UHGV virus genome: UHGV-0084588
Source of the DNA: a virus
DNA length: 64,000 nt
Reading direction: 5' to 3' (one strand)
Shown here: in pieces, positions 4,079-60,387 of the stretch
How positions within the stretch are numbered: the first letter of the stretch is position 1
Layout: each line of letters opens with the position of its first letter
Notes under the pieces: generated by a model
What the model was told of the DNA's origin: nothing
What the model saw: only the letters and a program-made list of their open reading frames with translations
The model's database searches: none
Made by a program: the position numbers and the translations under genes

Positions 4079-4157
4079 GAACGCGGAATTGGACATCACT
4101 TTCACGTTAGAAGTTGATGGATTAAAACCAGTATAATAATCCGCTTATAAAAATGTT

Positions 4158-4190
4158 GGGGAGGTGCTTTACCTCCCCAGATCTTTTAGC
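4158..4190 (+). promoter_or_regulatory. stem-loop upstream of the tail-fibre start
   Basis: Perfect 8-bp inverted repeat GGGGAGGT-gcttt-ACCTCCCC followed by a short T-rich stretch, after a TATAAAAA box; terminator or 5' UTR structure. Confidence 0.4.
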
Positions 4191-4212
4191 TCCAGATAGA
4201 GAATTAAATATC

Positions 4213-7200
4213 ATGGCTAAAGCGGTAAAGAAAATACGTTTACACGATTTGCGTCCATACACCGGGGATATCGGTGAAGGCGTTTTACTTTTTTCGAAAG
4301 ACGAAAAAGATTATAAGTTACCCGTCCGCGAAATCGTTGCGGATATTGACACCGTCAGAAACGCGGTTGCTGATGCACAAACAGCTGCAGCCAAATCGCA
4401 GCAGTCTGCAACAGAAGCTACGCAAGCAAAAAATTTAGCGGAAACCGCGAAGCAACAAACTGACACGTTAGCTTCCACAGTCAGTGAGCAAGCGGGAACC
4501 GTTGCCACTAAAACTGCTGAAGTTAACAAAAAACACGCTGAAGTTTTAGCAGCGAAAACTGCCGTAGATACTGTTTCACAATCAGTAAATGAGAAGGCTC
4601 AAGCTGTCGCCACATCCGAACAATCTGTGACGGCTACGGCGGCTGATGTAACTAAGAAAGCAGAAACGGTTACGCAACAGGCCGGACAAGTTCAACAGAC
4701 GGCTACCAGCGTTGAAAATACCGCAGCTTCAGTCGAGGCCAGTAAAGGTGCAGTGGAGAAAATCGCTGCACAGGTCGCGAAAGATAAAGAAAGCTCAGAA
4801 GGGGCAGCTACGCGTTCGGAGTCAGCTGCCCTACGTGCGGAGAAAATCGCTGCCCAAGGATTAGTTGACGCTACTACAACCGGTAAAGGTATTGTTAAAC
4901 TTAACGATACCCTGACAAGCGATTCCGTGACTGAGGCTGCTACACCGTCCACGGTTAAACAGCTGAACGACGATTTACAGTTAAAAGCCAATAAACATTC
5001 GCCGAATTTTACGGGTAACCCGACATCCCCAAAACCGCCGAAGGACTCGAATGACACGAGTATCTCCACAACGTCCTGGGTGCGTGACGCGATTGCGGAA
5101 TTGGTTGGTTCTTCACCCGAGACGCTAAATACCTTAGCGGAATTAGCTGAGGCGTTAGGTAATGACCCTAACTTCGCAACAACGATCACTGAGGAACTTG
5201 CGCAGAAACAACCTCTCAGCCCGTTACTCACCGCTATTGCCGCAGTCACCACAGCGGCAAACAAACTCATGTATTTCACCGGCAGTAATAAAGTCGGATT
5301 AACAGATTTTACAGAAACGGCCAGATCCTTGTTAGCGAAAGGGTCAACTGCGGATATCATTAACTTCCTGGGTTTGAAACCCACCGTTGATAAAGCAAAC
5401 GGCGCATTACAGAAAAACTCTAACGGTGCTGATATCCCAAATAAAGAAACTTTTGCTCGCAACATCGGCCTATCTCCTGATACCTATCTGCGTTTCCGTG
5501 GCGAAATGCCTGTAGATGCTGATATTAACACATTTGCTCCAGATGCTAATTACACAGGAACATGGTCCAAGTCGACATCAACCAATGCGTCGATGGCAAA
5601 ACACTTCCCAGAAGACGGTGCAGTCGGTTATCTGGAAGTGTATAAAGCGGGCAACTACAGTGGAGCGCAACGTTTTACCTGCCGTAATGGTAACGTGTAC
5701 AACCGTATGTTGTCAGGTGCGTGGAACGGAACTAATGGCCCGTGGTCACCGTGGAGAATGGTAACTACCGGTGTACGTCCGTTATCTACATCGATCGATC
5801 TGAACTCCTTAGGCGGCGCTGAGCACATGGGTAACTGGCGTAACTCGTCCAGTTCGTTAGCGGTGTTCGACAGACATTATCCTGAAGAGGGCGGTAATGC
5901 GCAAGGCGTATTAGAAGTCATGGAAGGCGGTCTTTATGGACGGTTGCAACGATACACCACACGACATGGTACGATGTATGTCCGTGGTTTGACTGCGACT
6001 TGGGATTCTTCTAATCCGCAGTGGGAAGATTGGATTCAGGTTGGGTATCAGGTAGACGGTGCCTACTATAAGGGTAGCTTTAACGACTTAACTAAACCGG
6101 GCCGCTTTAGTGTTACCGGTGAGGCTACAGACAGTCCGTTAACAGACTCTGCTGGCGCAACCTTGCTAGGTGTTTGCGAAGTTACCTTACGCTTAGACGG
6201 TTCAGGCGTTGAACAAAATTATACCACATACGGTACAGGCGCAACTTCGAAAGGTCGCAAGTTCCAACGAATTCGTACAGGAAACGCCTGGAGCGAATGG
6301 CGAGAGATTTTCACATCCTATTCACTCCCGTTGACTTTAGGGATCGGTGGGGTTGCTGCTAAGGTCGATCCGTTAGACTGGCAAACATTCGACTTCGTTC
6401 CTGGCCAGATGATAAGTACACCGTTGAATACCATGAAAAATATTCCTGCGGGAATGGATTGGGGTGTTATCGACGGTAACTTGGTCACTATTCTTGTAGG
6501 GGCGTCGGAGGACACCGGTACTGGCCGGAGTATGTTGGTCTGGCGTGGTACAGTGTCTACTGCTAACTATCGCTTCTTTGCTGTTCGCGTCGCTGGTGAA
6601 AAGGGTAAACGTACTATTACTAGCCGCCAGATGCCCGTATTGAATGCAGCGCATACGTGGGCAGAAAAACAGACCTTTGCAAAAGGGTTATCGGGCGAAT
6701 TGACAGGTAATGCGTCAACGGCAACAAAACTGAAAACAGCCCGTTTAATCGGCGGTGTAAGTTTCGACGGTAGCGGCGACATTAGCCTCCCTGGTGTGAA
6801 CCAACAGGGTAATCAAAACACCTCTGGGAACGCGGGAACCGCAACCAAATTACAAACGGCTCGAAACATCAACGGTGTGAAATTTGATGGGTCTAGAGAC
6901 ATCAATATCAACACGTTGGTAGGACGTGGACGTGTTACTGCACTGTCTGGTTCAAACAAAGGTACACCCGGTATTCAGATGTACGAAGTTTACAATAACG
7001 GTTATCCAACCGCTTATGGTAACTTACTGCATTTGGGTGGCGCTACTGCGCTAGGTGAAGGCGAGCTGTTAATCGGATGGCCGGGGACGAGCGGTGCGCA
7101 CGCGCCTGTTTATATTCGTAGTCGACGTGATACGGCTGATGCACCGTGGTCAGATTGGGCACAAGTTTACACTGCCCGTGACAGCATTCCTGGCGTAAAT

Positions 7201-8655
7201 GCCACCGGTAATCAAGATACTACCGGCAACGCCGCTACCGCGACGAAACTGAAAACCGCTCGCAGGATCGGAGGCGTTACCTTTGACGGTACAGGTGATA
7301 TCAATTTACCGGGCGTTAACCAGCAAGGCAACCAGAATACGACAGGTAATGCAGCGACCGCTACTAAGTTACAAACCGCACGTAAGATCGGCGGTGTGCT
7401 TTTCGATGGGACAAAAGACGTTAATCTTCCTGGCGTAAACCAAACCGGTAACCAATCGACTACGGGGAATGCGGCGACAGCGACTAAGCTCCAGACTGCG
7501 CGAAATATAGGTGGTGTAGCTTTTGATGGTACTAAAGACATCAGTTTACCTGGAGTAAACCAAACAGGTAATCAGGCGACTACCGGAAACGCAGCCACGG
7601 CAACAAAGTTGCAAACCGCAAGAACCATTAACGGTATCGCATTTGACGGCACTAGAAATATATCGTTAGGACCTGCCGATATAGGTTGTCCGGCATCGCC
7701 TAGTGGTTGGTTAGAAACTGGCAAAGATGGCGGCGCAATAACTACAGCACAGCTAGTGACGTTATTGAAAAATAACGGCGCATTTACCACAAGATCGTGG
7801 GTTGCTCGCTGTGCATGGGCTTATGCCGCTAGTGCGTCCATACCACACAGCGAGACGGGTTGTGGTGTTATTCCGTTAGCTGGGGCCGTTATAGAAGTGA
7901 TTAGTAACGGTAATAGCACAAACAACTACACGATCCGTATAACGACTGCCACAACGGCGAGCGTCGGTGGCGCACTCACTAATGCGGAGTTTATCTACGT
8001 ATTTAACGGCGATACATACTCACCAGGCTGGCGTCGTGCTTACAATACGAGAAACAAGCCAACTGCTGCAGAAGTGGGTGCACTACCTTCGGGGGGCGGT
8101 ACTATAGGCGGCGATTTAACCGTTAACGGTAAATTGGCCACTAAATACCCTGATTTTCGAATCGCTTACGGTACCTACGGTTTTATTTTACGTAACGACG
8201 GTGCCAATACCTATTTCTTAGTAACCGACGCCGGACAAGCCGCAACGGGTTCCTGGAACGGATTACGCCCGTTGTCTTTTAATAATTCTAACGGCCAAGT
8301 AAACTTTGGACATAACGTTACTGGCAACGGTAACGGTTCGTTTAACGACGTACAGATTCGTTCTGACCGTCGTAACAAACGTAATCTGGTGAAGCTGGAT
8401 AAAGCTTTGGATCGGTTAGAGTTACTAACCGGTTATTTGTACGAAATTCAGCATCCGGATGACGGCTGGCAGACTTCTGTAGGTCTAATTGCTCAGGACG
8501 CATTAGAAGCGTTACCTGAACTTGTGTCTGAGGATGATGATGCCATTTCAGGCGAAAAACGTTTACGTCTAAACTACAATGGCGTTATTGCGCTGTTAGT
8601 AGAGGGTATGAAAGCGTTGCGTCAAGAGGTTAACGAAATTAAAGGAAGATCCTAA
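4213..8655 (+). CDS. long tail fibre protein with C-terminal intramolecular chaperone (S74-like)
   Basis: 1480 aa from the ATG at 4213. N-terminal Ala/Gln/Thr-rich segment; four copies of a W-containing ~70-aa knob-like domain; six 40-aa repeats (GNQNTTGNAATATKLQTAR.IGGV.FDGT.D..LPGVNQ) of the phage tail-fibre repeat type; C-terminal ~97 aa (SDRRNKRNLVKLDKALDRLELLTGYLYE...) resembles the self-cleaving chaperone of T5 pb1 / K1F endosialidase. Confidence 0.85.
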   Translation: MAKAVKKIRLHDLRPYTGDIGEGVLLFSKDEKDYKLPVREIVADIDTVRNAVADAQTAAAKSQQSATEATQAKNLAETAKQQTDTLASTVSEQAGTVATKTAEVNKKHAEVLAAKTAVDTVSQSVNEKAQAVATSEQSVTATAADVTKKAETVTQQAGQVQQTATSVENTAASVEASKGAVEKIAAQVAKDKESSEGAATRSESAALRAEKIAAQGLVDATTTGKGIVKLNDTLTSDSVTEAATPSTVKQLNDDLQLKANKHSPNFTGNPTSPKPPKDSNDTSISTTSWVRDAIAELVGSSPETLNTLAELAEALGNDPNFATTITEELAQKQPLSPLLTAIAAVTTAANKLMYFTGSNKVGLTDFTETARSLLAKGSTADIINFLGLKPTVDKANGALQKNSNGADIPNKETFARNIGLSPDTYLRFRGEMPVDADINTFAPDANYTGTWSKSTSTNASMAKHFPEDGAVGYLEVYKAGNYSGAQRFTCRNGNVYNRMLSGAWNGTNGPWSPWRMVTTGVRPLSTSIDLNSLGGAEHMGNWRNSSSSLAVFDRHYPEEGGNAQGVLEVMEGGLYGRLQRYTTRHGTMYVRGLTATWDSSNPQWEDWIQVGYQVDGAYYKGSFNDLTKPGRFSVTGEATDSPLTDSAGATLLGVCEVTLRLDGSGVEQNYTTYGTGATSKGRKFQRIRTGNAWSEWREIFTSYSLPLTLGIGGVAAKVDPLDWQTFDFVPGQMISTPLNTMKNIPAGMDWGVIDGNLVTILVGASEDTGTGRSMLVWRGTVSTANYRFFAVRVAGEKGKRTITSRQMPVLNAAHTWAEKQTFAKGLSGELTGNASTATKLKTARLIGGVSFDGSGDISLPGVNQQGNQNTSGNAGTATKLQTARNINGVKFDGSRDININTLVGRGRVTALSGSNKGTPGIQMYEVYNNGYPTAYGNLLHLGGATALGEGELLIGWPGTSGAHAPVYIRSRRDTADAPWSDWAQVYTARDSIPGVNATGNQDTTGNAATATKLKTARRIGGVTFDGTGDINLPGVNQQGNQNTTGNAATATKLQTARKIGGVLFDGTKDVNLPGVNQTGNQSTTGNAATATKLQTARNIGGVAFDGTKDISLPGVNQTGNQATTGNAATATKLQTARTINGIAFDGTRNISLGPADIGCPASPSGWLETGKDGGAITTAQLVTLLKNNGAFTTRSWVARCAWAYAASASIPHSETGCGVIPLAGAVIEVISNGNSTNNYTIRITTATTASVGGALTNAEFIYVFNGDTYSPGWRRAYNTRNKPTAAEVGALPSGGGTIGGDLTVNGKLATKYPDFRIAYGTYGFILRNDGANTYFLVTDAGQAATGSWNGLRPLSFNNSNGQVNFGHNVTGNGNGSFNDVQIRSDRRNKRNLVKLDKALDRLELLTGYLYEIQHPDDGWQTSVGLIAQDALEALPELVSEDDDAISGEKRLRLNYNGVIALLVEGMKALRQEVNEIKGRS
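6689..6909 (+). repeat. tandem 120-nt coding repeats (block 1, about 2 units)
   Basis: Repeated nucleotide units encoding ...TGNASTATKLKTAR.IGGV.FDGS.DI.LPGVNQ...; the minus-strand ORF 6567..6782 is a shadow of these. Confidence 0.7.
7189..7669 (+). repeat. tandem 120-nt coding repeats (block 2, 4 units)
   Basis: Units begin at about 7189, 7309, 7429 and 7549 (CCTGGCGTAAAC / CCGGGCGTTAAC ... GGTAA.CA...AC.AC.GG.AA.GC.GC.AC.GC.AC.AA); the minus-strand ORF 7212..7541 is a shadow. Confidence 0.8.
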
Positions 8656-11353: not shown

Positions 11354-11379
11354 TCAGATATATATTACCTAGGGGAGAG
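11354..11379 (+). promoter_or_regulatory. conserved 26-bp promoter-like motif (copy 1) with downstream hairpin
   Basis: TCAGATATATATTACCTAGGGGAGAG, one of four near-identical copies; followed by a hairpin and about 70 nt upstream of the ATG at 11426. Confidence 0.5.
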
Positions 11380-11425
11380 TGAAATTTACATTCACTCCAT
11401 TAGTTATAGCCGAAAGGAGGATTAG

Positions 11426-15261: not shown

Positions 15262-15287
15262 TCAGATATATATTACCTAGGTGAGAG
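15262..15287 (+). promoter_or_regulatory. conserved 26-bp promoter-like motif (copy 2) with downstream hairpin
   Basis: TCAGATATATATTACCTAGGTGAGAG followed by the perfect hairpin GTGAGAGT-tcagtt-ACTCTCAC; 70 nt upstream of the ATG at 15332. Confidence 0.5.
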
Positions 15288-15331
15288 TTCAGTTACTCTC
15301 ACTTAACGAAACCATTTTAGGAGAATATACC

Positions 15332-21855: not shown

Positions 21856-21890
21856 TACCCTACTCCCGTTAAGGAGTAGGGTACTTTTTA
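21856..21890. terminator. bidirectional terminator between convergent genes
   Basis: TACCCTACTCC-cgttaa-GGAGTAGGGTA hairpin flanked by A/T-rich runs, between the plus gene ending at 21772 and the minus gene ending at 21888. Confidence 0.7.
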
Positions 21891-22370
21891 TTGTTCCGCA
21901 GGATGGAGCATTGTTCCAGTGTCAGGCGCTACACCTTCTATACAGCGGAAGAAAGTAATGCCTTTACCATCGCCCGTTTTATATTCTAAAGTAGAATACG
22001 CAAATGTTGGTGTTTTTGAAAGCAAACCATTTACACGGTAGTAACGTTGTCCCGTGATAGGATCAATATTCCCATTAACTTTACCTAATAAATCTTTATA
22101 AAGTTGGGGCGACTCAATCTTACCATTTGGCCAAGTGGCTACCCAATTAGCACCAGTATCGACTACGGTTACTGAGCCTAACATTAGATTAGTCGAGCTG
22201 ACGACAGGTTTGTAATTTGCAAAATCTTGCTCTACACCCATGCAGGTGTAAATAACCATGTCGTGTGGCTCCACCGGCACAGTCGAGAATTGGCCGTTAC
22301 CATTTGGTTGTAAGGCACATCCTGCTAATGAAAAAACACCAAGCATAACGATAAGAAAACGCTTTATCAT
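21888..22370 (-). CDS. lipoprotein
   Basis: Start taken at the ATG at 22370 (AAGGTG RBS); MIKRFLIVMLGVFSLAGC carries a lipobox before the Cys; convergent with the lysis-like block. Confidence 0.6.
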   Translation of the reverse strand: MIKRFLIVMLGVFSLAGCALQPNGNGQFSTVPVEPHDMVIYTCMGVEQDFANYKPVVSSTNLMLGSVTVVDTGANWVATWPNGKIESPQLYKDLLGKVNGNIDPITGQRYYRVNGLLSKTPTFAYSTLEYKTGDGKGITFFRCIEGVAPDTGTMLHPAEQ

Positions 22371-22433
22371 ACTTTTCACCTTTTTTATAAAAAGTTAAAA
22401 AAAATATTTTTACAGACAACCCTTACTGCCGAC

Positions 22434-45597: not shown

Positions 45598-45807
45598 TTA
45601 GTCTTTTTTGTAGACAATCGCGTTACCGTGCAGTTTGTTGTTGCCGGAAATACCGATAACTTTGAATGCGTCGCCGCCAATTTTTTCGGCTTCAGCAGCC
45701 AGTTTACCAGTTACATGATCAACGGTATCGCCGAAAGCGCTGACGTTACCGATTTTCTTAAACTCTTCTGGAATATGCTCAGCAGAAGAGAACTCTTTAA
45801 TAGACAT
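45598..45807 (-). CDS. DUF1471 (BhsA/McbA/YdgH-like) domain protein lacking a signal peptide
   Basis: Start at the ATG at 45807 (GGAGAG RBS); C-terminal ...GDAFKVIGISGNNKLHGNAIVYKKD parallels the BhsA C-terminus (...SFRITSVTGPNTLHGTAVIYK) as recalled. Confidence 0.55.
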   Translation of the reverse strand: MSIKEFSSAEHIPEEFKKIGNVSAFGDTVDHVTGKLAAEAEKIGGDAFKVIGISGNNKLHGNAIVYKKD

Positions 45808-46013
45808 AACAGCTCTCCATTTCAAAAGGTTAGTGGTCTAAGACCGACGTGTGTTACAACCGAAGCATAAGATAGCTCCTCCCCGTAGGGAGGAGTAGAG
45901 TGCGCGAAAAAAGTGGCCTGCTTAACTAAACGATGGGTTTAAGAAAAGTGTTGATAAAAAGTTTTACCAACGTCAGGTCACAATATATAAAAACAACGTA
46001 AGAAAAAGGGGAA

Positions 46014-47007: not shown

Positions 47008-47033
47008 TCAGATATATATTACTTAAGTGAATA
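47008..47033 (+). promoter_or_regulatory. conserved 26-bp promoter-like motif (copy 3) with downstream hairpin
   Basis: TCAGATATATATTACTTAAGTGAATA followed by an 11-bp stem (TAGGGACTGAA/TTCAGTCCCTA); unlike the other copies it lies about 390 nt upstream of the next ATG. Confidence 0.45.
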
Positions 47034-47398
47034 GGGACTGAAGTACCAGTTCAGTCCCTACGGACACGTTTCATTCGAAACGGATTGATTAAACCATTTG
47101 GGGAGACAGATCATGTCTACTAAAAAAAGAAAGTCTCAATGAGCTGCTCAAACGTCTTAAAGACTACACTCCATTTAGTACCTTCCGATAACAGGTACTA
47201 AAATTTTACAGTCTGCCCCTTTATTCTGCTACTCGGGATACCGGTAGGGGGTAGGGGGCATTATGTATACGGATATAAATAGCGGAGGTATACGTAGTAT
47301 ACCGACATACTCTTCCCAGAGGAACGTAGTGACTTCCTTATTCCTCTTCTGCAATCCATAATAATAGACTCCCCTTTATTGAGATTAGCGAGTAAATC

Positions 47399-48136
47399 AT
47401 GAGAGAATTATTAGACGATATCTTTACTAACACCAGTTTAGAACTTTCTTCTACCGTTGTTAACGAACTATTAAAACAATCGCAACCTGCTAAGTTAATC
47501 GATGCTGGAACAATTAAACCTGAAGATTATCCAGACAGTGACGTTATCGACTGTATGATTGACGAATACGTGATAGGCAGTTACGCCAACCGCGTCTTCT
47601 TCGTTATTAATACCGAAACCAGTGTCATGTTAATCTATAAGTTGATCAGTGATGCCGAACTTGAAGTTGTGGCTGACCACATTCGTCTTCTTGCGAACAC
47701 GCCTACTAGTATCGATGATGTGCTTATTGGGAACGGTTGGGCTTTACCACCACTATTCTCTTACTTCCCTCTGTTTAGAAATGGGATAGGGTTACTCCGA
47801 AATGCAGAAAAGCTTCCCGATAACGTCGAGTTATCACTGCTTGGACCCGGCATCGATCTTTGTCCATTAGAAGACGAGGGCACGCTATATGGTTTGCGCA
47901 TCTATGTTTCTGTGTTAAAGGGTTACCGCGTTATTGAACTGATTGCATCCGACTTAGCAAAACAGATCCCAGATGTGGAAACGATTTCTAAAGCCACCCA
48001 CCTGGTTGAGATTAACTCAGACGATCCCTTATTGAAATATCACGAGAAAATTGATCTTCGTAAAATCGCCACGATGAGAGGGTGGAGTTGTGCTGAGATT
48101 ACGAAGGACTATCTGCTGTTAATTAAAACCGCGTAA
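47399..48136 (+). CDS. hypothetical protein (paralog array member 1)
   Basis: 245 aa; C-terminal ...RGWSCAEITKDYLLLIKTA is related to the GW...QLLF.AD ends of the next three genes. Confidence 0.55.
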   Translation: MRELLDDIFTNTSLELSSTVVNELLKQSQPAKLIDAGTIKPEDYPDSDVIDCMIDEYVIGSYANRVFFVINTETSVMLIYKLISDAELEVVADHIRLLANTPTSIDDVLIGNGWALPPLFSYFPLFRNGIGLLRNAEKLPDNVELSLLGPGIDLCPLEDEGTLYGLRIYVSVLKGYRVIELIASDLAKQIPDVETISKATHLVEINSDDPLLKYHEKIDLRKIATMRGWSCAEITKDYLLLIKTA

Positions 48137-48166
48137 TTAAGAAAACCGAAAAAAGGAGAATATACC

Positions 48167-48721
48167 ATGTTTCAAACTGAACTGAAAAATGAAATTATCC
48201 AAACCCTTGAAAAAGGCGTAGGCGAACATTTCTTTGTCCGTCCTTATACCGTACTGACCAATACCATTATCCAGCCAGGTGCGATGATAGTAGGGGTAAG
48301 TGTACAAGCTGTAGAGGAAGCCCCGCTGCGTCGTAACATCACACGTAAAAACCATATTCCATTTAGAACGGGTTTTACAAATTACTTTCAGAGCTTACTG
48401 AAAGATAGCGTTTGGAAAACAGGCAGCTTCTTCCACGAAGGGAAGACTTCCACGCTGGTTTATAAAGAGAACACCAAGTATCTGGTTGATTTTCTCTTAG
48501 CGCGTCAATACGATTTCTTTCCTTCACCCACCGGTCTCACCCCAGACAATCCGAGTAAGCTGTTAAACCAAGACGAAGCTGAAGCACTGCGTGCACAACT
48601 GAGAAAAGAAGGTTGTGATGTCGATGACCATGAAACCTTAATCGGGGTTGCTAAAGCACACGGTTGGTATACCGTGCGTGTATTTGGGCGTCAGATGTTG
48701 TTCTTAGCTTATAACGTTTAA
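48167..48721 (+). CDS. hypothetical protein (paralog array member 2)
   Basis: 184 aa; AAAAGGAGAATATACC-ATG; C-terminal AHGWYTVRVFGRQMLFLAYNV. Confidence 0.6.
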   Translation: MFQTELKNEIIQTLEKGVGEHFFVRPYTVLTNTIIQPGAMIVGVSVQAVEEAPLRRNITRKNHIPFRTGFTNYFQSLLKDSVWKTGSFFHEGKTSTLVYKENTKYLVDFLLARQYDFFPSPTGLTPDNPSKLLNQDEAEALRAQLRKEGCDVDDHETLIGVAKAHGWYTVRVFGRQMLFLAYNV

Positions 48722-48732
48722 AGGATGGTATC

Positions 48733-49860
48733 ATGCATATCTGTCATAACGCACCGTCGCACAAACTTTATCTTGAATTGCTTTTCGAGGACTACAAGAA
48801 AGGGGTGCCGAAAATATTACTTAGCATCCCGCCTGATACGCAAACTGAATTGTTCGGTCGCGTTTTTGGTTGTACCGTTAACGCTTTGCCAGAACCAATC
48901 TGTGCGCCTGTGGATAATTGTGTTTTCGACGAACGAATTGAGGATTTTCAATTCACCTTTTACGTAAACGATTCTTTACTGTACGATAAACTCTATGTTC
49001 GTGAGTTGAAATCAAATCAGCGGTTAATGTACCGCGTCTATCCGCCCCACAGAGGGTCGATACTAGAGTATAAAATCAGACGGCTACCTTACGAGGGTGT
49101 GAATTTACTCGACCAGCAGGATATGGCTTTTCTGGAAGAACTCTGTGGATTTGAAATTGAGAAGATTCACGTAACCCAGGAAATATCCCGAAACGTACCT
49201 AGTCGTCATACCCCTTACGGTGGGTTTCCGTACGAGTTCACCGACACAGGACTAAGGCTCGTAACCGAATTTAACGACGTAATGTATTACGCAGTGTGTA
49301 TTGAACGTAAAGTAGTGGAGAAAGAAATGACAAGTACATTGAAAGAAGAATTAGCCCAATTCATTCGTGATGTTGAAGAGAAAAGCAAGAGCGATCACAT
49401 TTTCTCACAACGTTATCCTGAACTTATTGACGAAACCACCGATAGTGTCGTCGATGGTATACGCATTTTCCCAAGTGGTCTTGCAATTTACCGACTGCCT
49501 AGTGTTAATCAGCTTAAAGTCATGGAAATGCTAAAAGACGTTTTAGCAGAAGCAGGTTGGGAATATCGTTTCGATTGCAATTTCGAAGGGATGGCGTTAT
49601 TCGTTACAAAGAAAAATTATACGTTGTCAATCGATCTGCCCAAAAGTCAATATTACAGTTTCTTCCCGAAAGCGGATGACCGCACTGAAAAAGAACCTGC
49701 GATGTTACTTGATGCGGCAGAGTCCAATACGCTAATGATACATCTGCGGACGATTGATAAAGAGTTAACTACCAGTCATTTAACGACGATCGGTAAAGAT
49801 TACGGTTGGAAATCTGTCGAACCGTATGGCAGTCAGCTACTGTTTGTTGCTGACCTCTAA
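48733..49860 (+). CDS. hypothetical protein (paralog array member 3)
   Basis: 375 aa; C-terminal DYGWKSVEPYGSQLLFVADL. Confidence 0.6.
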   Translation: MHICHNAPSHKLYLELLFEDYKKGVPKILLSIPPDTQTELFGRVFGCTVNALPEPICAPVDNCVFDERIEDFQFTFYVNDSLLYDKLYVRELKSNQRLMYRVYPPHRGSILEYKIRRLPYEGVNLLDQQDMAFLEELCGFEIEKIHVTQEISRNVPSRHTPYGGFPYEFTDTGLRLVTEFNDVMYYAVCIERKVVEKEMTSTLKEELAQFIRDVEEKSKSDHIFSQRYPELIDETTDSVVDGIRIFPSGLAIYRLPSVNQLKVMEMLKDVLAEAGWEYRFDCNFEGMALFVTKKNYTLSIDLPKSQYYSFFPKADDRTEKEPAMLLDAAESNTLMIHLRTIDKELTTSHLTTIGKDYGWKSVEPYGSQLLFVADL

Positions 49861-49886
49861 TAAGTGAAACTACACTTTCTCTAACT

Positions 49887-49910
49887 GCCGCGCTTTAGTC
49901 GCGGCTTTTG
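49887..49910 (+). terminator. weak hairpin terminator
   Basis: GCCGCG-cttta-gtCGCGGC followed by TTTTGTT. Confidence 0.4.
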
Positions 49911-49928
49911 TTAAGAAGGAAAAAAGAA

Positions 49929-50708
49929 ATGAAAATCCATTTAGACGACCTCTTTAAAACTGAACCGTACATGGTTAAAGGTTCGCTGGCTTCATTGTTG
50001 CTAGACGATAGATACCATCGAACGCTACAATTACAATCGGTAGAAACCGCGCCAACGGGAATTGAAGACGTGGGTCTTTACCAACGTATCACTCACACAC
50101 GTGGAGAATATCGTCGATATAAACCCGATACACTGACCGTTAAGCTTTGGCAAGTGGGCACAGGCAAGGTATTAAGTTATCGCGCCGTTGGTCTGTACCA
50201 CGTTGAACGTGCTTACACATGGTTAGAAGAAGTTAAAGAAATGGATTACGACCAGCTAAGCAAAAGACTTCGTGACCATAACGCCAGTTTACCGTTACGT
50301 AATTATTTCTCCACAGTTGAAAATAGTCGTTGTTTCGTTTCTCGCGAATCCATGATATTACCTGGAACTGACGTTCAGACGACGCTAAAAGACGTGGTTG
50401 TAAAGAAAGTCTTTCATGAGTCTGAACACGTTGGGTTTCGTATCTATTTAACCCACAAGAGACCATTTACCGTGATTCATGTTGTTACCGTACCCGAAGG
50501 ATCAGCAGTCTCTCGGGAACTTCCTGATGCTCGCGACCGTTGCCCTAATGAGCCGCTCTACTTAATGTCAGGAACAAAATCAACCGCGTTGATGTCTCGT
50601 TACAGCATGATAGATGTTGTTGACGCTGCTATGAAGCTAGGTTGGAAAGAAGTGCAGCAACACGGTAAACAGTTGCTGTTTATTGCCGATGTAAAACTTA
50701 ATTATTAG
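49929..50708 (+). CDS. hypothetical protein (paralog array member 4)
   Basis: Start at the ATG at 49929 (AAGGA RBS); C-terminal KLGWKEVQQHGKQLLFIADV. Confidence 0.55.
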   Translation: MKIHLDDLFKTEPYMVKGSLASLLLDDRYHRTLQLQSVETAPTGIEDVGLYQRITHTRGEYRRYKPDTLTVKLWQVGTGKVLSYRAVGLYHVERAYTWLEEVKEMDYDQLSKRLRDHNASLPLRNYFSTVENSRCFVSRESMILPGTDVQTTLKDVVVKKVFHESEHVGFRIYLTHKRPFTVIHVVTVPEGSAVSRELPDARDRCPNEPLYLMSGTKSTALMSRYSMIDVVDAAMKLGWKEVQQHGKQLLFIADVKLNY

Positions 50709-50720
50709 TGAGGTGGAACC

Positions 50721-51299
50721 GTGTACCGATTAATAGAAATGCGAAAAGACGTTTGGTTGGAAAATCTCGTCGATGGGGAGCTTGAGGGAGTTGGGCTTTC
50801 CTTACCAGAAAGGGCGGACACGGTATTAGCCTTTCTGATAAAGCGGGCAGCGAATGAACCTGTGGGGATTTTCGACGTGGATTACAAAGAACCGCGCGGA
50901 ATTCGTTTACGTAACATCTGTTGTGGTTTAGAGAACTTGACGGCAAGTCCTTTCGTAAACTACGCAAAACGTAAACTCCAGCCAGGGCAACATCTCTGGG
51001 TAGTTCTAGCGCCAGATATTCGCATTATGCGAGACGACCTGACTGCGTTTGTGCAAGCAACGAAAGTCAGTTTGTACAATCCTAATGCGGAACGTACCGA
51101 TATGCCGTTTACAATCACCTTAGAAGACGATGGAACGCAAGAGGGCATTGAGGCGATTACGGAATTAGTAAACTCTTATCCGGTTGCATCTATCGAGTTA
51201 GAAAACCCAAACCGATTACCGTTGGGGGATTTACTCGAATGGATTGAGCTGAATACTGAGTTCCTCATTAACTCCCGACAATATCGGTTCGATGTATAA
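50721..51299 (+). CDS. hypothetical protein
   Basis: 192-aa ORF with GTG start (GAGGTGG RBS). Confidence 0.5.
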   Translation: MYRLIEMRKDVWLENLVDGELEGVGLSLPERADTVLAFLIKRAANEPVGIFDVDYKEPRGIRLRNICCGLENLTASPFVNYAKRKLQPGQHLWVVLAPDIRIMRDDLTAFVQATKVSLYNPNAERTDMPFTITLEDDGTQEGIEAITELVNSYPVASIELENPNRLPLGDLLEWIELNTEFLINSRQYRFDV

Positions 51300-51303
51300 C
51301 GTC

Positions 51304-51336
51304 GGTGGGGGTAAACCCCCACCTTTTATTTTTTGT
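51304..51336 (+). terminator. rho-independent terminator
   Basis: GGTGGGGG-taaa-CCCCCACC followed by TTTTATTTTTTG. Confidence 0.8.
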
Positions 51337-51357
51337 TCGTCAACATTAAAAATAATT

Positions 51358-51383
51358 TCAGATATATATTACTTAGGTGAGAG
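51358..51383 (+). promoter_or_regulatory. conserved 26-bp promoter-like motif (copy 4) with downstream hairpin
   Basis: TCAGATATATATTACTTAGGTGAGAG followed by GAGTTA-tgat-TAACTC; 72 nt upstream of the ATG at 51430. Confidence 0.5.
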
Positions 51384-51429
51384 TTATGATTAACTCATTT
51401 ATACATTAACGCCTTAAAGGAGCAAAACA

Positions 51430-51891
51430 ATGAAATTTTTTACTTCCTTTTTAACCATCCTCTTAACGCTGGGTCTCAATACTGCACACGCAGCAATCAA
51501 TAGCTGGGAACAAATCCAGTCTCCAGACCAAGCCATCTACGAAATCGAAGACACTGAAGGCAACAGCCTCTCTATCAATTGCAGTACAGAAACCGCCAAT
51601 CGTAAATTTTACGGGCACAATGTTTGGTATTACGGAGAACCTGCAGGGGCAACAAACGCTGAGGATAACGCGCTCGATATTGTCGTAAATGGTAAAAAAT
51701 ACCGTATCCCTACCATCGACGGTAGCGACCGTTCAGAACAAGCCTGGGCGGATTTCATTAAAGCGGTCGGTGGGGCAAACCATTTTAGCTTGCTTATTAA
51801 CGATAACGTGGCAGCAGGGTTTACCGTAGAAGGCGAACGCCTTAACGAAACGTTTTTCCAGAACTGTGGACACAGCCGTCCTAACAAATAA
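51430..51891 (+). CDS. secreted protein (signal peptide)
   Basis: MKFFTSFLTILLTLGLNTAHA-AINSW is a typical Sec signal peptide with an AHA cleavage site; AAAGGAG RBS. Confidence 0.65.
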   Translation: MKFFTSFLTILLTLGLNTAHAAINSWEQIQSPDQAIYEIEDTEGNSLSINCSTETANRKFYGHNVWYYGEPAGATNAEDNALDIVVNGKKYRIPTIDGSDRSEQAWADFIKAVGGANHFSLLINDNVAAGFTVEGERLNETFFQNCGHSRPNK

Positions 51892-51919
51892 ATATTAATC
51901 TTTTTTAGAGTGCGTGAAA

Positions 51920-52306
51920 ATGAATATCAGAACTATACTTTATACTATCATTATTTTCTGTGCGGTCGGAATTACTGGCACTTATGCTTTCGGTGATTCG
52001 GATGTCCGCTATTACGAACCGGCTCCTGACTCACCCATTATCAACCCGGATGAGTCCCCTACGTTAATGCGCAGTTTCGGTAAACTGCAAGTTTATCGTT
52101 TAGTGCGTGGTGAAACGTGTACGGGATTACTCATTGCTGACACCCGTGCACAAGTCTACCAACGTCTAACCGATATTGCTTGCGAACAACCGAAAGTAAT
52201 GTCAGTTAGTATCCATCCGCTATCAGTTGGTAACTATACCGCTGTGGACTTCTTTCATAACGCCGAATTAATTGGCCGTGTTACTTTAAATCGTCCTGCT
52301 GAATAA
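51920..52306 (+). CDS. secreted/membrane-anchored small protein
   Basis: MNIRTILYTIIIFCAVGITGTYAFG N-terminal hydrophobic segment; an alternative GTG start exists at 51914. Confidence 0.5.
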   Translation: MNIRTILYTIIIFCAVGITGTYAFGDSDVRYYEPAPDSPIINPDESPTLMRSFGKLQVYRLVRGETCTGLLIADTRAQVYQRLTDIACEQPKVMSVSIHPLSVGNYTAVDFFHNAELIGRVTLNRPAE

Positions 52307-52324
52307 TCTAAAGGAGTAGTTGCA

Positions 52325-52810
52325 ATGAAACGTTTACATACGCTGATGTTCTTTCTGGTTTTCTTGTTTATCGGTGCCACACCAACTGTAGATGCGGCCT
52401 CCGTAGACGAATTACTTACCTGTGATGGAAACGCTTGGGAAGGTCAGCCAAATGCGTGCCCGAACATCAACGACTTGTACGATACCGATAAGTCATTTAA
52501 AGCTGTTGTTGATAAAACACTAGACCCGGTGGGACTGGATGGTATGTTCGGCTCTAAAGGTTACATGGATGGTCCTGGCGGTAACATGTATCCGGTAAAC
52601 ATCAACAACAAAATCTGGATTGAAAGTGGTGGTTGTAAAGCTAATGCTTGTGGCTGGGAATACATCGTAACGCTATACAACCCACACACCAAGAAACTCG
52701 TCGGTTATTACTACAACATCGACCCCGGTTATCTGATTTGGTTCGGTGATATCGGTGTTGCTGAATTCGCTTACCTGGTTAAGAAATACGCGGAACAATC
52801 TAAATACTAA
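52325..52810 (+). CDS. secreted protein (signal peptide)
   Basis: MKRLHTLMFFLVFLFIGATPTVDA-ASV; AAGGAG RBS; several Cys in the mature part. Confidence 0.65.
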   Translation: MKRLHTLMFFLVFLFIGATPTVDAASVDELLTCDGNAWEGQPNACPNINDLYDTDKSFKAVVDKTLDPVGLDGMFGSKGYMDGPGGNMYPVNINNKIWIESGGCKANACGWEYIVTLYNPHTKKLVGYYYNIDPGYLIWFGDIGVAEFAYLVKKYAEQSKY

Positions 52811-52821
52811 GGACTTTTATC

Positions 52822-53232
52822 ATGAAAACTATCATCAACACTCTTCTCATTGCAATTGCTATTCTGTTCTCTGTTAACGTATCAGCAAAAACAATACAGT
52901 TGCCAGACGGTATTAAGTACGTCAATAGCACCGACGATTTCTACTGTACGGAAATTGACGGTCTGTACTGCCAGGCGAAGAACCTGTTTAAATACAAAGG
53001 TAGCAGATACGTGTTCATCGTTGAGCAAGGTGGTGCCTGGTGCTACGACAGCCCAATGTCTGTACTCAACCTCGAAACGTGGAAGGCACAACGTCTTGAA
53101 TACAACGACAAACATTTGTGCTCAGGCAACAACAAACCATTCTTCAAAGTCGTAGATGGTGTACCGATGGTAGGGATATTAGACACTTCGGAAAAACCTA
53201 TCGTTGTAGCTATGGATAAACTTAAAATTTAA
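52822..53232 (+). CDS. secreted protein (signal peptide)
   Basis: MKTIINTLLIAIAILFSVNVSA-KTIQ; Cys-containing mature part. Confidence 0.65.
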   Translation: MKTIINTLLIAIAILFSVNVSAKTIQLPDGIKYVNSTDDFYCTEIDGLYCQAKNLFKYKGSRYVFIVEQGGAWCYDSPMSVLNLETWKAQRLEYNDKHLCSGNNKPFFKVVDGVPMVGILDTSEKPIVVAMDKLKI

Positions 53233-53242
53233 GGAGTAACTC

Positions 53243-53632
53243 ATGCGTCTCATCTGCGCTTTAGCATTCTTCTTCTCCCTGGGTGTAGCGGCATCTACTC
53301 AAGTTAACGATTTACTGCTAACCCCAAACAACAATACCGATTACCAGTACAATCCTCCGGGGTTTGAAGTTTGTGAAGTCGGTGAAACAATCTGCCAAGA
53401 AGTCGGCGCAGACGGGCGCTATATTCTGGTAAAAGCTGATGGTGGCACAATGTGTCCCGCAGGTTATTACTTTCTTCTCGATTCCGTTGCAAGAGAGGTT
53501 CTTCCTATCACCACGAAAACGTGCGACCCTACTGTTGTCTTAACTCTCGCTAAAAGCAAATCTCGCGACCGTTATCTGATCGTTATCGAAGAACGGGGCA
53601 AGATGGCTGGCGCTATCGAATTAGATCATTGA
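53243..53632 (+). CDS. secreted protein (signal peptide)
   Basis: MRLICALAFFFSLGVAAS-TQV; AAGGAG RBS; followed by a terminator. Confidence 0.65.
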   Translation: MRLICALAFFFSLGVAASTQVNDLLLTPNNNTDYQYNPPGFEVCEVGETICQEVGADGRYILVKADGGTMCPAGYYFLLDSVAREVLPITTKTCDPTVVLTLAKSKSRDRYLIVIEERGKMAGAIELDH

Positions 53633-53642
53633 GTGTAGTCTT

Positions 53643-53670
53643 GGCCCCGGAATGTCCGGGGTCCTTTTTT
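53643..53670 (+). terminator. rho-independent terminator
   Basis: GCCCCGG-aatgt-CCGGGGT followed by CCTTTTTT. Confidence 0.75.
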
Positions 53671-53700
53671 ACGACATGTTTTACCTAAAGGAGTATTAAA

Positions 53701-59588: not shown

Positions 59589-59688
59589 ATATTATCATTA
59601 GGGCACACAACAAAGGAGTATTAGCTGTCCGCGCCGTCATTTCGTCTTACGGAATACGGAAATGTATAAATCCAACTGGAGAAACAAA

Positions 59689-60387
59689 ATGTTTCGTATC
59701 TTCTTTCTTTTACTGGTAACACTTTTCGCGTTTAACGCACAGGCGTCAACGTCAACGCCGCAAACTAAACATCAGCGTGAATTTACACAAATCCAACATC
59801 GGTTCGAAAAGGTCAGTCCGTTAATTGTGGAAATCTCACGAAAGCAAGGCGTTGATCCTAAGCTGATGATTACGCTGATTTATCGCGAATCGCGTTTTGA
59901 TCCCAAGGCTTACAACAAAAGCACACGAGCGCACAGCCTAGTACAGATGCTTCCAAGTACCAAGCGCAATCTGCTAAAGCTTTATGGAAAAGAATTAGGT
60001 CTTAGTCAGAACGCTGATTTGTATAATCCGCGTAACGCTGTTTTGCTGGCTACCGCGTATGTTAAACATCTTGAGAAGGGGTTAACCAAACGACTCAAAC
60101 GCAAGCCCACCATGGCTGAAGTTGCGTTAGCTTACCACTGGGGTGAAAGTGGCGCTCACACGCGAATCAAAAGCAAATCTCGAGCAGCACAACGAGAAAT
60201 GGCAGGCTTTATGAAAGACGCCGCGTTCTATAGCGCGAAAATCGATGTGCCTGTTGTTGTGGGCTCGGCCCCACGTCAGCTTGCGTTTGCGAAGAAAACA
60301 CCACGTCAGATTCAATTGGCGGAAGTTAGTAAAATTTGGGATACGATAAACACGAGTTTTCCAATCAATAGAGGAGTTACCCTTTGA
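59689..60387 (+). CDS. secreted lytic transglycosylase (SLT domain)
   Basis: Start at the ATG at 59689: signal peptide MFRIFFLLLVTLFAFNAQA, then ESRFDPKAYNKSTRAHSLVQMLPST matching the SLT catalytic motif (E-S...GLMQ-x-MP-x-T). Confidence 0.65.
   Translation: MFRIFFLLLVTLFAFNAQASTSTPQTKHQREFTQIQHRFEKVSPLIVEISRKQGVDPKLMITLIYRESRFDPKAYNKSTRAHSLVQMLPSTKRNLLKLYGKELGLSQNADLYNPRNAVLLATAYVKHLEKGLTKRLKRKPTMAEVALAYHWGESGAHTRIKSKSRAAQREMAGFMKDAAFYSAKIDVPVVVGSAPRQLAFAKKTPRQIQLAEVSKIWDTINTSFPINRGVTL

Follow-up and report, generated by a model that had tools for sequence, protein, structure and literature searches.

A five-gene operon of predicted periplasmic proteins, including a putative divergent Ivy relative, in a jumbo phage of the SPN3US group

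In phage T4, the early protein Spackle (gp61.3), which is periplasmic and disulfide-bonded, inhibits the tail lysozyme gp5 and mediates superinfection exclusion (PMC7677548). Ivy, also periplasmic, inhibits both lysozymes of the c type and lytic transglycosylases (PMC3660660, PMC10139938); it carries a disulfide-closed CKPHDC loop (PMC3660660) and shields E. coli from lysozyme once the outer membrane has been permeabilised (PMC2267010). The known proteinaceous lysozyme inhibitors are mostly beta-sheet proteins which insert a loop between strands (PMC7677548). Here we analyse a block of five small genes in the virus genome UHGV-0084588, of which a stretch of 64,000 nucleotides was available (the whole of this stretch is called the window). 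Our analysis indicates that the block is a single operon whose products are probably exported, and that one of them appears to be a distant relative of Ivy. We tentatively propose that the block specifies an early periplasmic set of binders or inhibitors which protect the envelope of the infected cell, a reading that we place slightly short of an even chance.

Work on jumbo phages has so far centred on the cytoplasm, that is, on the phage nucleus, the early infection vesicle and the phage RNA polymerases. The jumbo-phage literature that we searched contains no discussion of periplasmic functions, and the terms periplasm, secreted, signal peptide and superinfection are all absent from a 2026 review of jumbo-phage biology. 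In the deposited genomes examined, the cassette genes carry no annotation beyond 'hypothetical'.

Organisation of the operon and its export signals

All five of the adjacent small open reading frames (ORFs) that a preliminary description had listed are present on the + strand. Gene 1 (51430–51891) encodes 153 amino acids (aa) with a predicted signal peptide at residues 1–21, gene 2 (51914–52306) 130 aa from a GTG codon, gene 3 (52325–52810) 161 aa with a predicted signal peptide at residues 1–24, gene 4 (52822–53232) 136 aa with one at residues 1–22, and gene 5 (53243–53632) 129 aa with one ending at residue 17 or 18. For gene 2, the ATG at 51920 (128 aa) is more probably the start than the GTG at 51914, because the called orthologue in the relative L014 begins at the matching ATG. 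The intergenic gaps within the cassette are 22, 18, 11 and 10 nt, and an AAGGAG or AAGGA Shine-Dalgarno sequence lies 6–9 nt 5' of the ATG in four of the five genes.

The block is bounded on both sides. The operon upstream ends at an intrinsic terminator (51304–51335, + strand; GGTGGGGGTAAACCCCCACC followed by a T-run, an 8-bp stem with 7 GC pairs and the tail TTTTATTTTT), which is followed by a conserved promoter motif at 51346–51387 (+ strand) with the core TCAGATATATATTACTTAGG at 51358–51377. A second intrinsic terminator, at 53643–53672 on the + strand (GGCCCCGGAATGTCCGGGGTC then CTTTTTT, a 9-bp stem with 7 GC pairs), closes the five-gene operon and has the top score in a scan of 10 kb for terminators. 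From this order of terminator, promoter motif, five closely spaced genes and terminator, the sequence describes one discrete transcription unit. The earlier claim of an operon following a copy of a conserved promoter motif is thus borne out by the motif, the Shine-Dalgarno sites and the flanking terminators. Compared with L014, the five genes have dN/dS values of 0.05–0.10, similar to those of the flanking genes. These values, together with PHROG matches of genes 2, 4 and 5 and syntenic orthologues in SPN3US-like phages, argue that the five are real genes under strong purifying selection.

The N-termini of the five products, with a slash at the predicted cleavage site, are MKFFTSFLTILLTLGLNTAHA/A, M(KM)NIRTILYTIIIFCAVGITGTYA/F, MKRLHTLMFFLVFLFIGATPTVDA/A, MKTIINTLLIAIAILFSVNVSA/K and MRLICALAFFFSLGVAA/S for genes 1 to 5. 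Each has one or two basic residues followed by a core of 8–10 strongly hydrophobic residues according to our heuristic (13–14 uncharged residues when counted by eye), and the predicted cleavage sites AHA/A, TYA/F, VDA/A, VSA/K and VAA/S have small residues at positions -3 and -1. Sites of the cleavage type are retained in orthologues which otherwise differ, for example VEA/N and SFA/E in orthologues of SPN3US gp180 (the gene 2 family). A crude heuristic for the n, h and c regions passes 8 of the 71 non-overlapping ORFs of the window; five of these eight are the consecutive cassette genes, and the other three are an exported SLT endolysin, one lipoprotein and one doubtful case. The mature parts of the proteins contain 2, 2, 4, 4 and 4 cysteines, always an even number, which are invariant or nearly so in the orthologue alignments of each family. 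The earlier suggestions of typical signal peptides on all five proteins and of multiple cysteines pointing to disulfides therefore agree with the n-h-c regions, the small-x-small sites and the cysteine counts, all conserved in orthologues. We infer that the five proteins are exported through Sec with cleavable signal peptides. Because the numbers of invariant cysteines in the mature parts are even, the products would be disulfide-bonded periplasmic proteins, oxidised by DsbA.

None of the five cassette proteins has a lipobox. A spanin or holin identity was considered and rejected because of this and because the endolysin lies 6 kb away. The anti-phage defence profiles of PADLOC contain no family that matches any of the five proteins at E<=0.1. 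The sole lipobox protein found in the window is a predicted lipoprotein of 163 aa encoded at 21888–22379 on the - strand (MKSMIKRFLIVMLGVFSLAG/C), which could be an o-spanin or a receptor-masking lipoprotein.

The region around the cassette is collinear at the protein level with the Salmonella phages SPN3US and pSal-SNUABM-04 and with the Erwinia phages phiEaH2, pEa_SNUABM_29 and Caitlin, the common order being a block of paralogous proteins, the cassette, two conserved small genes and an SMC-like gene (52–60 % identity). This shared gene order places the source genome as an undescribed jumbo phage of the SPN3US group. Its closer relatives are present as metagenome or assembly contigs only, one of which (L015) is a 223-kb contig of a closely related phage within a Salmonella enterica genome assembly. 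At the DNA level, the promoter motif is the sole part of the region that matches known phages.

Protein families of the cassette and their exchange

The preliminary description did not note that the five genes fall into four unrelated families with a gp180/gp182/gp183 core, that two of the genes (one YfjT-like, one Ivy-like) are shared with bacterial islands or that the content of the cassette varies among relatives. Gene 3, the Ivy-like member, has no PHROG match and no Pfam match at E<=1, and its family was found by tblastn in none of 50,697 GenBank phage records; canonical E. coli Ivy was found in one of the same records. The relationship to Ivy emerges from several comparisons. Gene 3 matches NCBIfam NF007443 with an E-value of 0.0013 (18.6 bits), the profile of its family matches the Ivy entries 1GPQ and 1XS0 of the Protein Data Bank (PDB) over the same 48 residues, and hhalign aligns the family with E. 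coli Ivy over 81 columns (E 6.9e-4). The E. coli homologue P0002 pairs with Ivy in BLASTP at E 6e-7, and Ivy (PF08816) is the sole Pfam match of the E. coli homologues P0002, P0003 and P0006 (14.4–16.8 bits, the gathering score being 21). A phmmer search of gene 3 against the PDB returned noise only, the link being seen with NCBIfam, family profiles and a fold search. The predicted model of gene 3 is alpha/beta, with a mean pLDDT of 64, and its best structural match in the PDB is Ivy.

A further resemblance concerns the disulfide-closed loop of Ivy, with whose C-K-P-H-D-C the segment C104-K-A-N-A-C109 of gene 3 aligns in three independent alignments. The cysteine pair and the lysine of this loop are invariant in 12 members of the gene 3 family, and the E. 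coli island homologues P0002, P0004 and P0007 have CKAHAC, with the histidine kept. Since all of the sequence scores are under the curated thresholds, we regard gene 3 as a divergent, sub-threshold member of the Ivy superfamily and keep it outside the curated Ivy family.

Homologues of gene 3 that are 58–65 % identical occur on the chromosome in 138 of 5,426 complete E. coli genomes, where they are always annotated as hypothetical. They are located in CP4-57-type islands, between patatin, YjcZ and dynamin-like genes on one side and a DUF932-antirestriction-RadC-CbeA/CbtA module on the other. In the E. coli chromosomal loci L008–L013, the Ivy-like homologue (gene 8001–8483) is downstream of genes for a dynamin-like GTPase, YjcZ and patatin. 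In some E. coli strains, an upstream ORF with a signal-like N-terminus of its own is fused in frame, resulting in Ivy-like forms of 223–227 aa.

Gene 1 was assigned through the precomputed PF27224 (YfjT) matches of its homologues and through BLASTP to YfjT of E. coli K-12. PF27224 is carried by 10 of 12 homologues (57–98 % identical) and by all seven of those which cover 99–100 % of gene 1 (61–98 % identical), P0017–P0023 being among the carriers. The alignment with K-12 YfjT (b2637, in CP4-57) spans 116 aa at 27 % identity (E 2e-15). On these matches gene 1 is a member of the YfjT family, in whose alignment C51 and C146 are invariant, and no homologue was found among the 50,697 phage records. 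A literature search returned nothing functional on YfjT. Immunoglobulin lambda V domains give a weak match to the family profile (best E 0.004), by way of '…S-I-x-C-T-G…W-Y' near the first conserved cysteine; this match might point to an Ig-like sandwich or be due to chance, and it is too weak to use.

Genes 2, 4 and 5 match phrog_9424 (E 1.4e-40), phrog_8968 (E 6.9e-32) and phrog_5248 (E 5.7e-30), respectively, with near full-length coverage, and six phages share both the gene order and the flanking genes. By sequence and position they are the orthologues of SPN3US gp180, gp182 and gp183. With tblastn, gene 2 was found in 53 phage records at 33–52 % identity, and C69 and C90 are invariant in the alignment of its family, which has no match in the PDB. 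Comparison of the mature parts by hhalign relates the gp182 family to the gp181 family with a probability of 97.6 % (E 4e-12) and to the gp183 family with 78.8 % (E 1.7e-5), the E-values that join the three families being 4e-12, 2.5e-7 and 1.7e-5. The pattern common to them is F-x-C…C…(strand)-GG-x-x-C-P-x-G-Y-(strand)…C, with four cysteines conserved across the superfamily. The same comparison gives no significant link between gene 2 and the families of genes 4 and 5 (E 0.03–0.5, probability <2 %); its two cysteines can be placed on cysteines 3 and 4 of those families, and the PHROG cross-matches are weak. An origin of the five genes as tandem paralogues of one gene was therefore dismissed, because only genes 4 and 5 are demonstrably related, which leaves four unrelated families.

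The gp183 family is tiny, with 14 cluster representatives at E<=1e-3 among 1.84 billion proteins. Ten of the 14 are about 110–135 residues long, nearly all with a signal peptide, and four are long proteins of 763–3,767 aa. The predicted model of gene 5 is all-beta. The gp182/gp183-type proteins can be described, from their sequences, as a phage-specific, putatively all-beta family with two predicted disulfides, in which conservation is strongest at a disulfide-pinned turn, GG-x-x-C-P-x-G-Y. The superfamily profile also matched the designed beta-trefoil 'ThreeFoil' (E 3.9e-7), which was discarded because this value is the sum of three identical repeats, each with an E-value of 4–7; we take the match to reflect a shared beta-hairpin motif amplified by the repeats and not homology.

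In the SPN3US group, the cassette lies between the gp174–179 block and gp184–185 followed by the SMC-like gene, and its content differs from phage to phage. The arrangement gp180-181-182-183 is that of SPN3US, phiEaH2 and their kin; the cassette of Machinavirus-type phages comprises three genes, and that of the window consists of YfjT-like, gp180, Ivy-like, gp182 and gp183 genes. The relatives L014 and L016 have a second YfjT paralogue, which amounts to a 530-nt indel relative to the window. In L015 and L017, one gp181-like domain replaces the mature part of the Ivy-like protein and all of gene 4. The breakpoint of this swap is about 50 nt into the region coding for the signal peptide, so that the Ivy-type leader MKRLHALMF… precedes another mature protein. 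The substituted gp181-like domain (L015 7427–7903 and L017 1489–1941, against L014 7429–8334) has only 2 cysteines. L020 has the same five-gene layout as the window with an Ivy-like allele that is 63 % identical to the one described here, whereas the flanking cassette genes are 78–94 % identical. The L020 allele is 85 % identical to P0009, a protein whose source organism is not recorded and which carries the N-terminal extension of the E. coli island forms. Both genes 1 and 3 have relatives in the CP4-57-type islands of E. coli. Gain and loss of YfjT genes, the leader-preserving swap, the divergent Ivy-like alleles and the island relatives together form a pattern that indicates, at the level of sequence, repeated exchange between phage and host islands, as is typical of conflict loci.

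Promoter motif, proposed function and alternative explanations

The 42-nt promoter motif is 100 % identical to that of the Erwinia phages phiEaH2 and Stratton, while the proteins are only about 45 % identical, and the promoter region is 84–89 % identical over 52–71 nt to SPN3US-like Salmonella phages. TCAGATATATATTACYTAGG occurs four times in the 64-kb window, all on the + strand, against 0.01 expected; the copies of the motif, TCAGATATATATTACyTAGGTGAG, each precede + strand runs of small genes, and those at about 11354 and 51358 both come after a terminator-like hairpin with a T-run. A shorter core, TATATTAC, has no match on the - strand of the window, which is the strand of the large structural genes. 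The motif is located upstream of the gp180 cassette in SPN3US, SPAsTU, pEa_SNUABM_29, pSal-SNUABM-04, phiEaH2 and Caitlin, directly 5' of it in SPN3US and with at least one other gene between in the other five. According to a review, each of the jumbo phages that encode RNA polymerases has a conserved AT-rich motif before its presumed early operons, and where tested the motif is an early promoter used by the virion polymerase (PMC7598289). By analogy, the motif in the window probably serves as an early promoter for the virion RNA polymerase. Because the motif is conserved before orthologous cassettes, and in the light of the same review (PMC7598289), the cassette would be expressed early.

An inverted repeat, GAGTTA-tgat-TAACTC, can be read at 51381–51396 (+ strand), after the promoter core. 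Such short inverted repeats directly follow the motif copies at 51378–51398, about 11370–11400 and about 15275–15300. Their arms vary yet stay complementary (GAGTTA/TAACTC, GGAGAGTGAA/TTCACTCC at about 11370 and GTGAGAGT/ACTCTCAC at about 15275), and a repeat is present upstream of SPN3US gp180 too. It is probably a conserved hairpin at the 5' end of the transcript.

If these elements work together as we propose, the injected virion RNA polymerase would read the promoter at 51346–51387 and produce a polycistronic mRNA, delimited by terminators at both ends and translated from strong Shine-Dalgarno sites. The products would be exported via Sec, with their signal peptides cut at AxA-type sites, and the mature proteins would be locked by one or two disulfides through DsbA oxidation. 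In the periplasm they might serve as stoichiometric binders or inhibitors of envelope-acting enzymes. Because gene 3 encodes an Ivy-superfamily protein, its target would most likely be a peptidoglycan-cleaving enzyme, either a lysozyme or a lytic transglycosylase, which could come from the tail of a superinfecting phage, from the environment or from the cell itself. Genes 4 and 5, of the gp182/gp183 type, might act likewise on other targets. Taken together, they would protect the wall of the infected cell and keep competitors out through the long jumbo-phage cycle, comparable to T4 Spackle. The strongest single argument for this envelope protection is the Ivy relationship taken together with the Spackle precedent, and inhibition of muralytic enzymes or superinfection exclusion may accordingly be suggested for the cassette by analogy. 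In the preliminary description, the operon, the Sec-type signals and the disulfide-bonded periplasmic proteins stand at the sequence level. Its functional part (superinfection exclusion, receptor masking or interference with periplasmic host functions) is plausible, with one concrete point in its favour, namely that gene 3 is a putative divergent Ivy relative.

Several observations weigh against the envelope-protection reading. Gene 3 is far below the curated thresholds for Ivy, with 18.6 bits against 180 in NCBIfam and an hhalign probability of 26.6 %, and the Pfam Ivy score of 14–17 bits against 21 is reached by the E. coli homologues only; the assignment also draws on a model with a mean pLDDT of 64. 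Nor is the full CKPHDC consensus present, the central histidine being an asparagine in the phage protein (CKANAC). In Ivy, this central histidine of the loop contacts the active site of lysozyme. No match to a known inhibitor family was obtained for genes 2, 4 or 5, the folds that they match being those of generic propeller blades, and for genes 1, 2, 4 and 5 the inhibitor idea comes from analogy and location and not from functional homology. A Pfam scan of the large structural genes of the window, which found a tail fibre and a radical-SAM protein, gave no tail muralytic domain as a target. A literature search returned no experiment or expression data for SPN3US gp180–183, and the early class of the promoter is taken from a review on other jumbo phages.

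It is conceivable, if improbable, that the early periplasmic proteins, chiefly the Ivy-like one, control the timing of lysis by restraining the SLT endolysin until it is in excess or a trigger arrives. This endolysin, a protein of 241 aa encoded 6 kb downstream (59662–60387, + strand), has the N-terminus MFRIFFLLLVTLFAFNAQA/S(TS) and matches PF01464 at E 4.6e-15; its orthologues in SPN3US-like phages are annotated as 'putative endolysin' and share the N-terminus. Phages of this type thus appear, from their sequences, to export the endolysin via Sec, so that some restraint on its activity would need explaining, and lytic transglycosylases are among the targets of Ivy (PMC3660660, PMC10139938). 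However, the Ivy-like gene is absent from SPN3US, phiEaH2, L015 and L017 and so is not required beside the conserved endolysin; its absence from many phages that share the endolysin is what weakens this explanation. There is also no strict co-occurrence, since 141 phage records contain the endolysin family and 53 the gp180 family, and the cassette is not adjacent to the endolysin but sits behind an early-type promoter. An envelope takeover that does not involve peptidoglycan hydrolases, in which the proteins bind receptors, Tol-Pal, proteases or stress sensors or neutralise colicins or type VI effectors, seems to us unlikely. Its consequences would be masked receptors, blocked envelope defences of the host or protection from killing by competitors.

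The cassette might also consist of genes which benefit the host ('moron' genes) in a carrier or pseudolysogenic state, giving tolerance to animal lysozyme or to envelope stress in the gut. Salmonella serovars lack an Ivy homologue, whose protective effect against lysozyme in permeabilised E. coli was mentioned above (PMC2267010); the 223-kb contig L015 in a Salmonella enterica assembly is compatible with carriage. We nevertheless consider such a role distinctly improbable, as the histidine of the lysozyme-binding loop is lost in gene 3 (CKANAC), the link to lysozyme concerns one of the five genes only, the motif before the cassette also precedes other lytic operons that are presumably early and SPN3US-like phages are described as lytic. 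Very little probability attaches to the view that the N-termini are uncleaved signal anchors of inner-membrane-tethered factors with an unrelated function, for example in lysis or DNA entry. The 21-residue uncharged stretch of gene 2 (TILYTIIIFCAVGITGTYAFG) is long enough to span the membrane, but the hydrophobic cores as delimited by the heuristic are short (8–10 residues), and small-x-small sites follow them in all five proteins and in orthologues such as those of gp180 (VEA/N, SFA/E). An anchor would in any case leave the cysteine-rich domains on the periplasmic side.

If muralytic inhibition holds, it bears on the design of phage cocktails, through cross-exclusion, and on the use of phage lysins. 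The operon suggests that the periplasm is an early investment of the whole group (Seoulvirus, Erskinevirus, Machinavirus and relatives), which would combine three to four conserved core proteins, all exported, with swappable modules. It would also place an Ivy-like gene in a jumbo phage and suggest a part in conflict between phages, or between phage and host, for two orphan genes of E. coli islands, those for YfjT and the Ivy-like 160-aa protein. A more elaborate model, to which we give little credence at present, is an early 'periplasmic shield' locus of SPN3US-like jumbo phages, made of modular exported decoys or inhibitors that are rebuilt by recombination within the signal-peptide sequence, with one leader serving different mature domains, and traded in both directions with cryptic-prophage islands of E. 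coli. In that model, gp181/182/183-type proteins are two-blade propeller fragments, and the full periplasmic beta-propeller that they form as homo- or hetero-oligomers sequesters the muralytic or penetration apparatus of phages attempting to enter, or other envelope weapons. Were it correct, the shield would represent a type of superinfection-exclusion device not described before, and jumbo phages of the nucleus-forming type would gain their first assigned periplasmic function.

Some neighbouring features of the window may be recorded here. The preceding operon (47008–51299, + strand) follows another copy of the promoter motif, and its SPN3US relatives are gp175–178; its products of 375 and 266 aa share a C-terminal region ending …GW..V...G.QLLF(V/I)AD (BLASTP E 2e-8), by which the products of the operon are partly paralogous. 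On the - strand at 45598–45825, a small ORF occupies the position of a gene which has a YdgH/BhsA-like Pfam match in close relatives and is annotated as bhsA in SPAsTU. Bacterial proteins of the BhsA type are exported, and the ORF as read has no signal peptide. The tail-fibre protein of 1,500 aa (4153–8655, + strand) has a Gp34 trimerisation domain and an endosialidase-chaperone domain, and its gene contains six copies of a 38-nt repeat at 6703–7619, mostly 120 nt apart.

Comparison with described systems

T4 Spackle is the closest functional analogue of the cassette proteins as proposed here, being early, exported with a cleaved signal, disulfide-bonded and periplasmic. It differs in that it is a single protein, a 75-residue alpha-helical bundle, whereas the five proteins of the cassette belong to four families and are predicted to be alpha/beta (gene 3) or all-beta (gene 5). 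No PHROG or Pfam link leads from the cassette proteins to the Spackle family. MliC/PliC, PliG and PliI are small, periplasmic and mainly beta-sheet, and they insert a loop into the active site of muramidases, a mode of action that might be suggested for genes 4 and 5; the cassette proteins gave no family-profile or fold match to these inhibitors.

With Ivy (PF08816, NF007443; PDB 1GPQ, 1XS0 and 1UUZ), gene 3 shares a mature length of about 135 residues, a predicted helix followed by a beta-sheet and a six-residue C-K loop, putatively disulfide-closed in gene 3, at the same alignment position (CKANAC and CKPHDC). The flanking strands also align (…CGWEYIVTLYNP…VGYYYNID in gene 3 and …CGSQRIAVMWSE…TGLFSTID in Ivy). 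In contrast, the identity is about 19 %, the proline, histidine and aspartate of the loop are not conserved, and gene 3 has a predicted extra disulfide (C33-C45) near its N-terminus and is found outside the ivy locus, in a jumbo phage and in E. coli islands. Gene 1 resembles YfjT of the K-12 island CP4-57 in family, signal peptide and two conserved cysteines. However, yfjT comes after the lipoprotein gene yfjS in an island operon, while gene 1 heads a phage operon.

The locus compares most directly with SPN3US gp180–gp183 (PHROGs 9424, 8968 and 5248, all hypothetical), with which genes 2, 4 and 5 agree in order, genomic position and promoter motif, although the identities are only 30–52 %. In the window, unlike in SPN3US, an unrelated Ivy-like gene takes the place of gp181, and the cassette opens with an additional YfjT-like gene. 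Phage periplasmic proteins that defend the infected cell are of an already known kind. What is new here is a multi-gene, putatively early cassette in jumbo phages, with an Ivy-like module, a YfjT-like module, a phage-restricted beta family with two predicted disulfides and an exchange of modules that preserves the leader.

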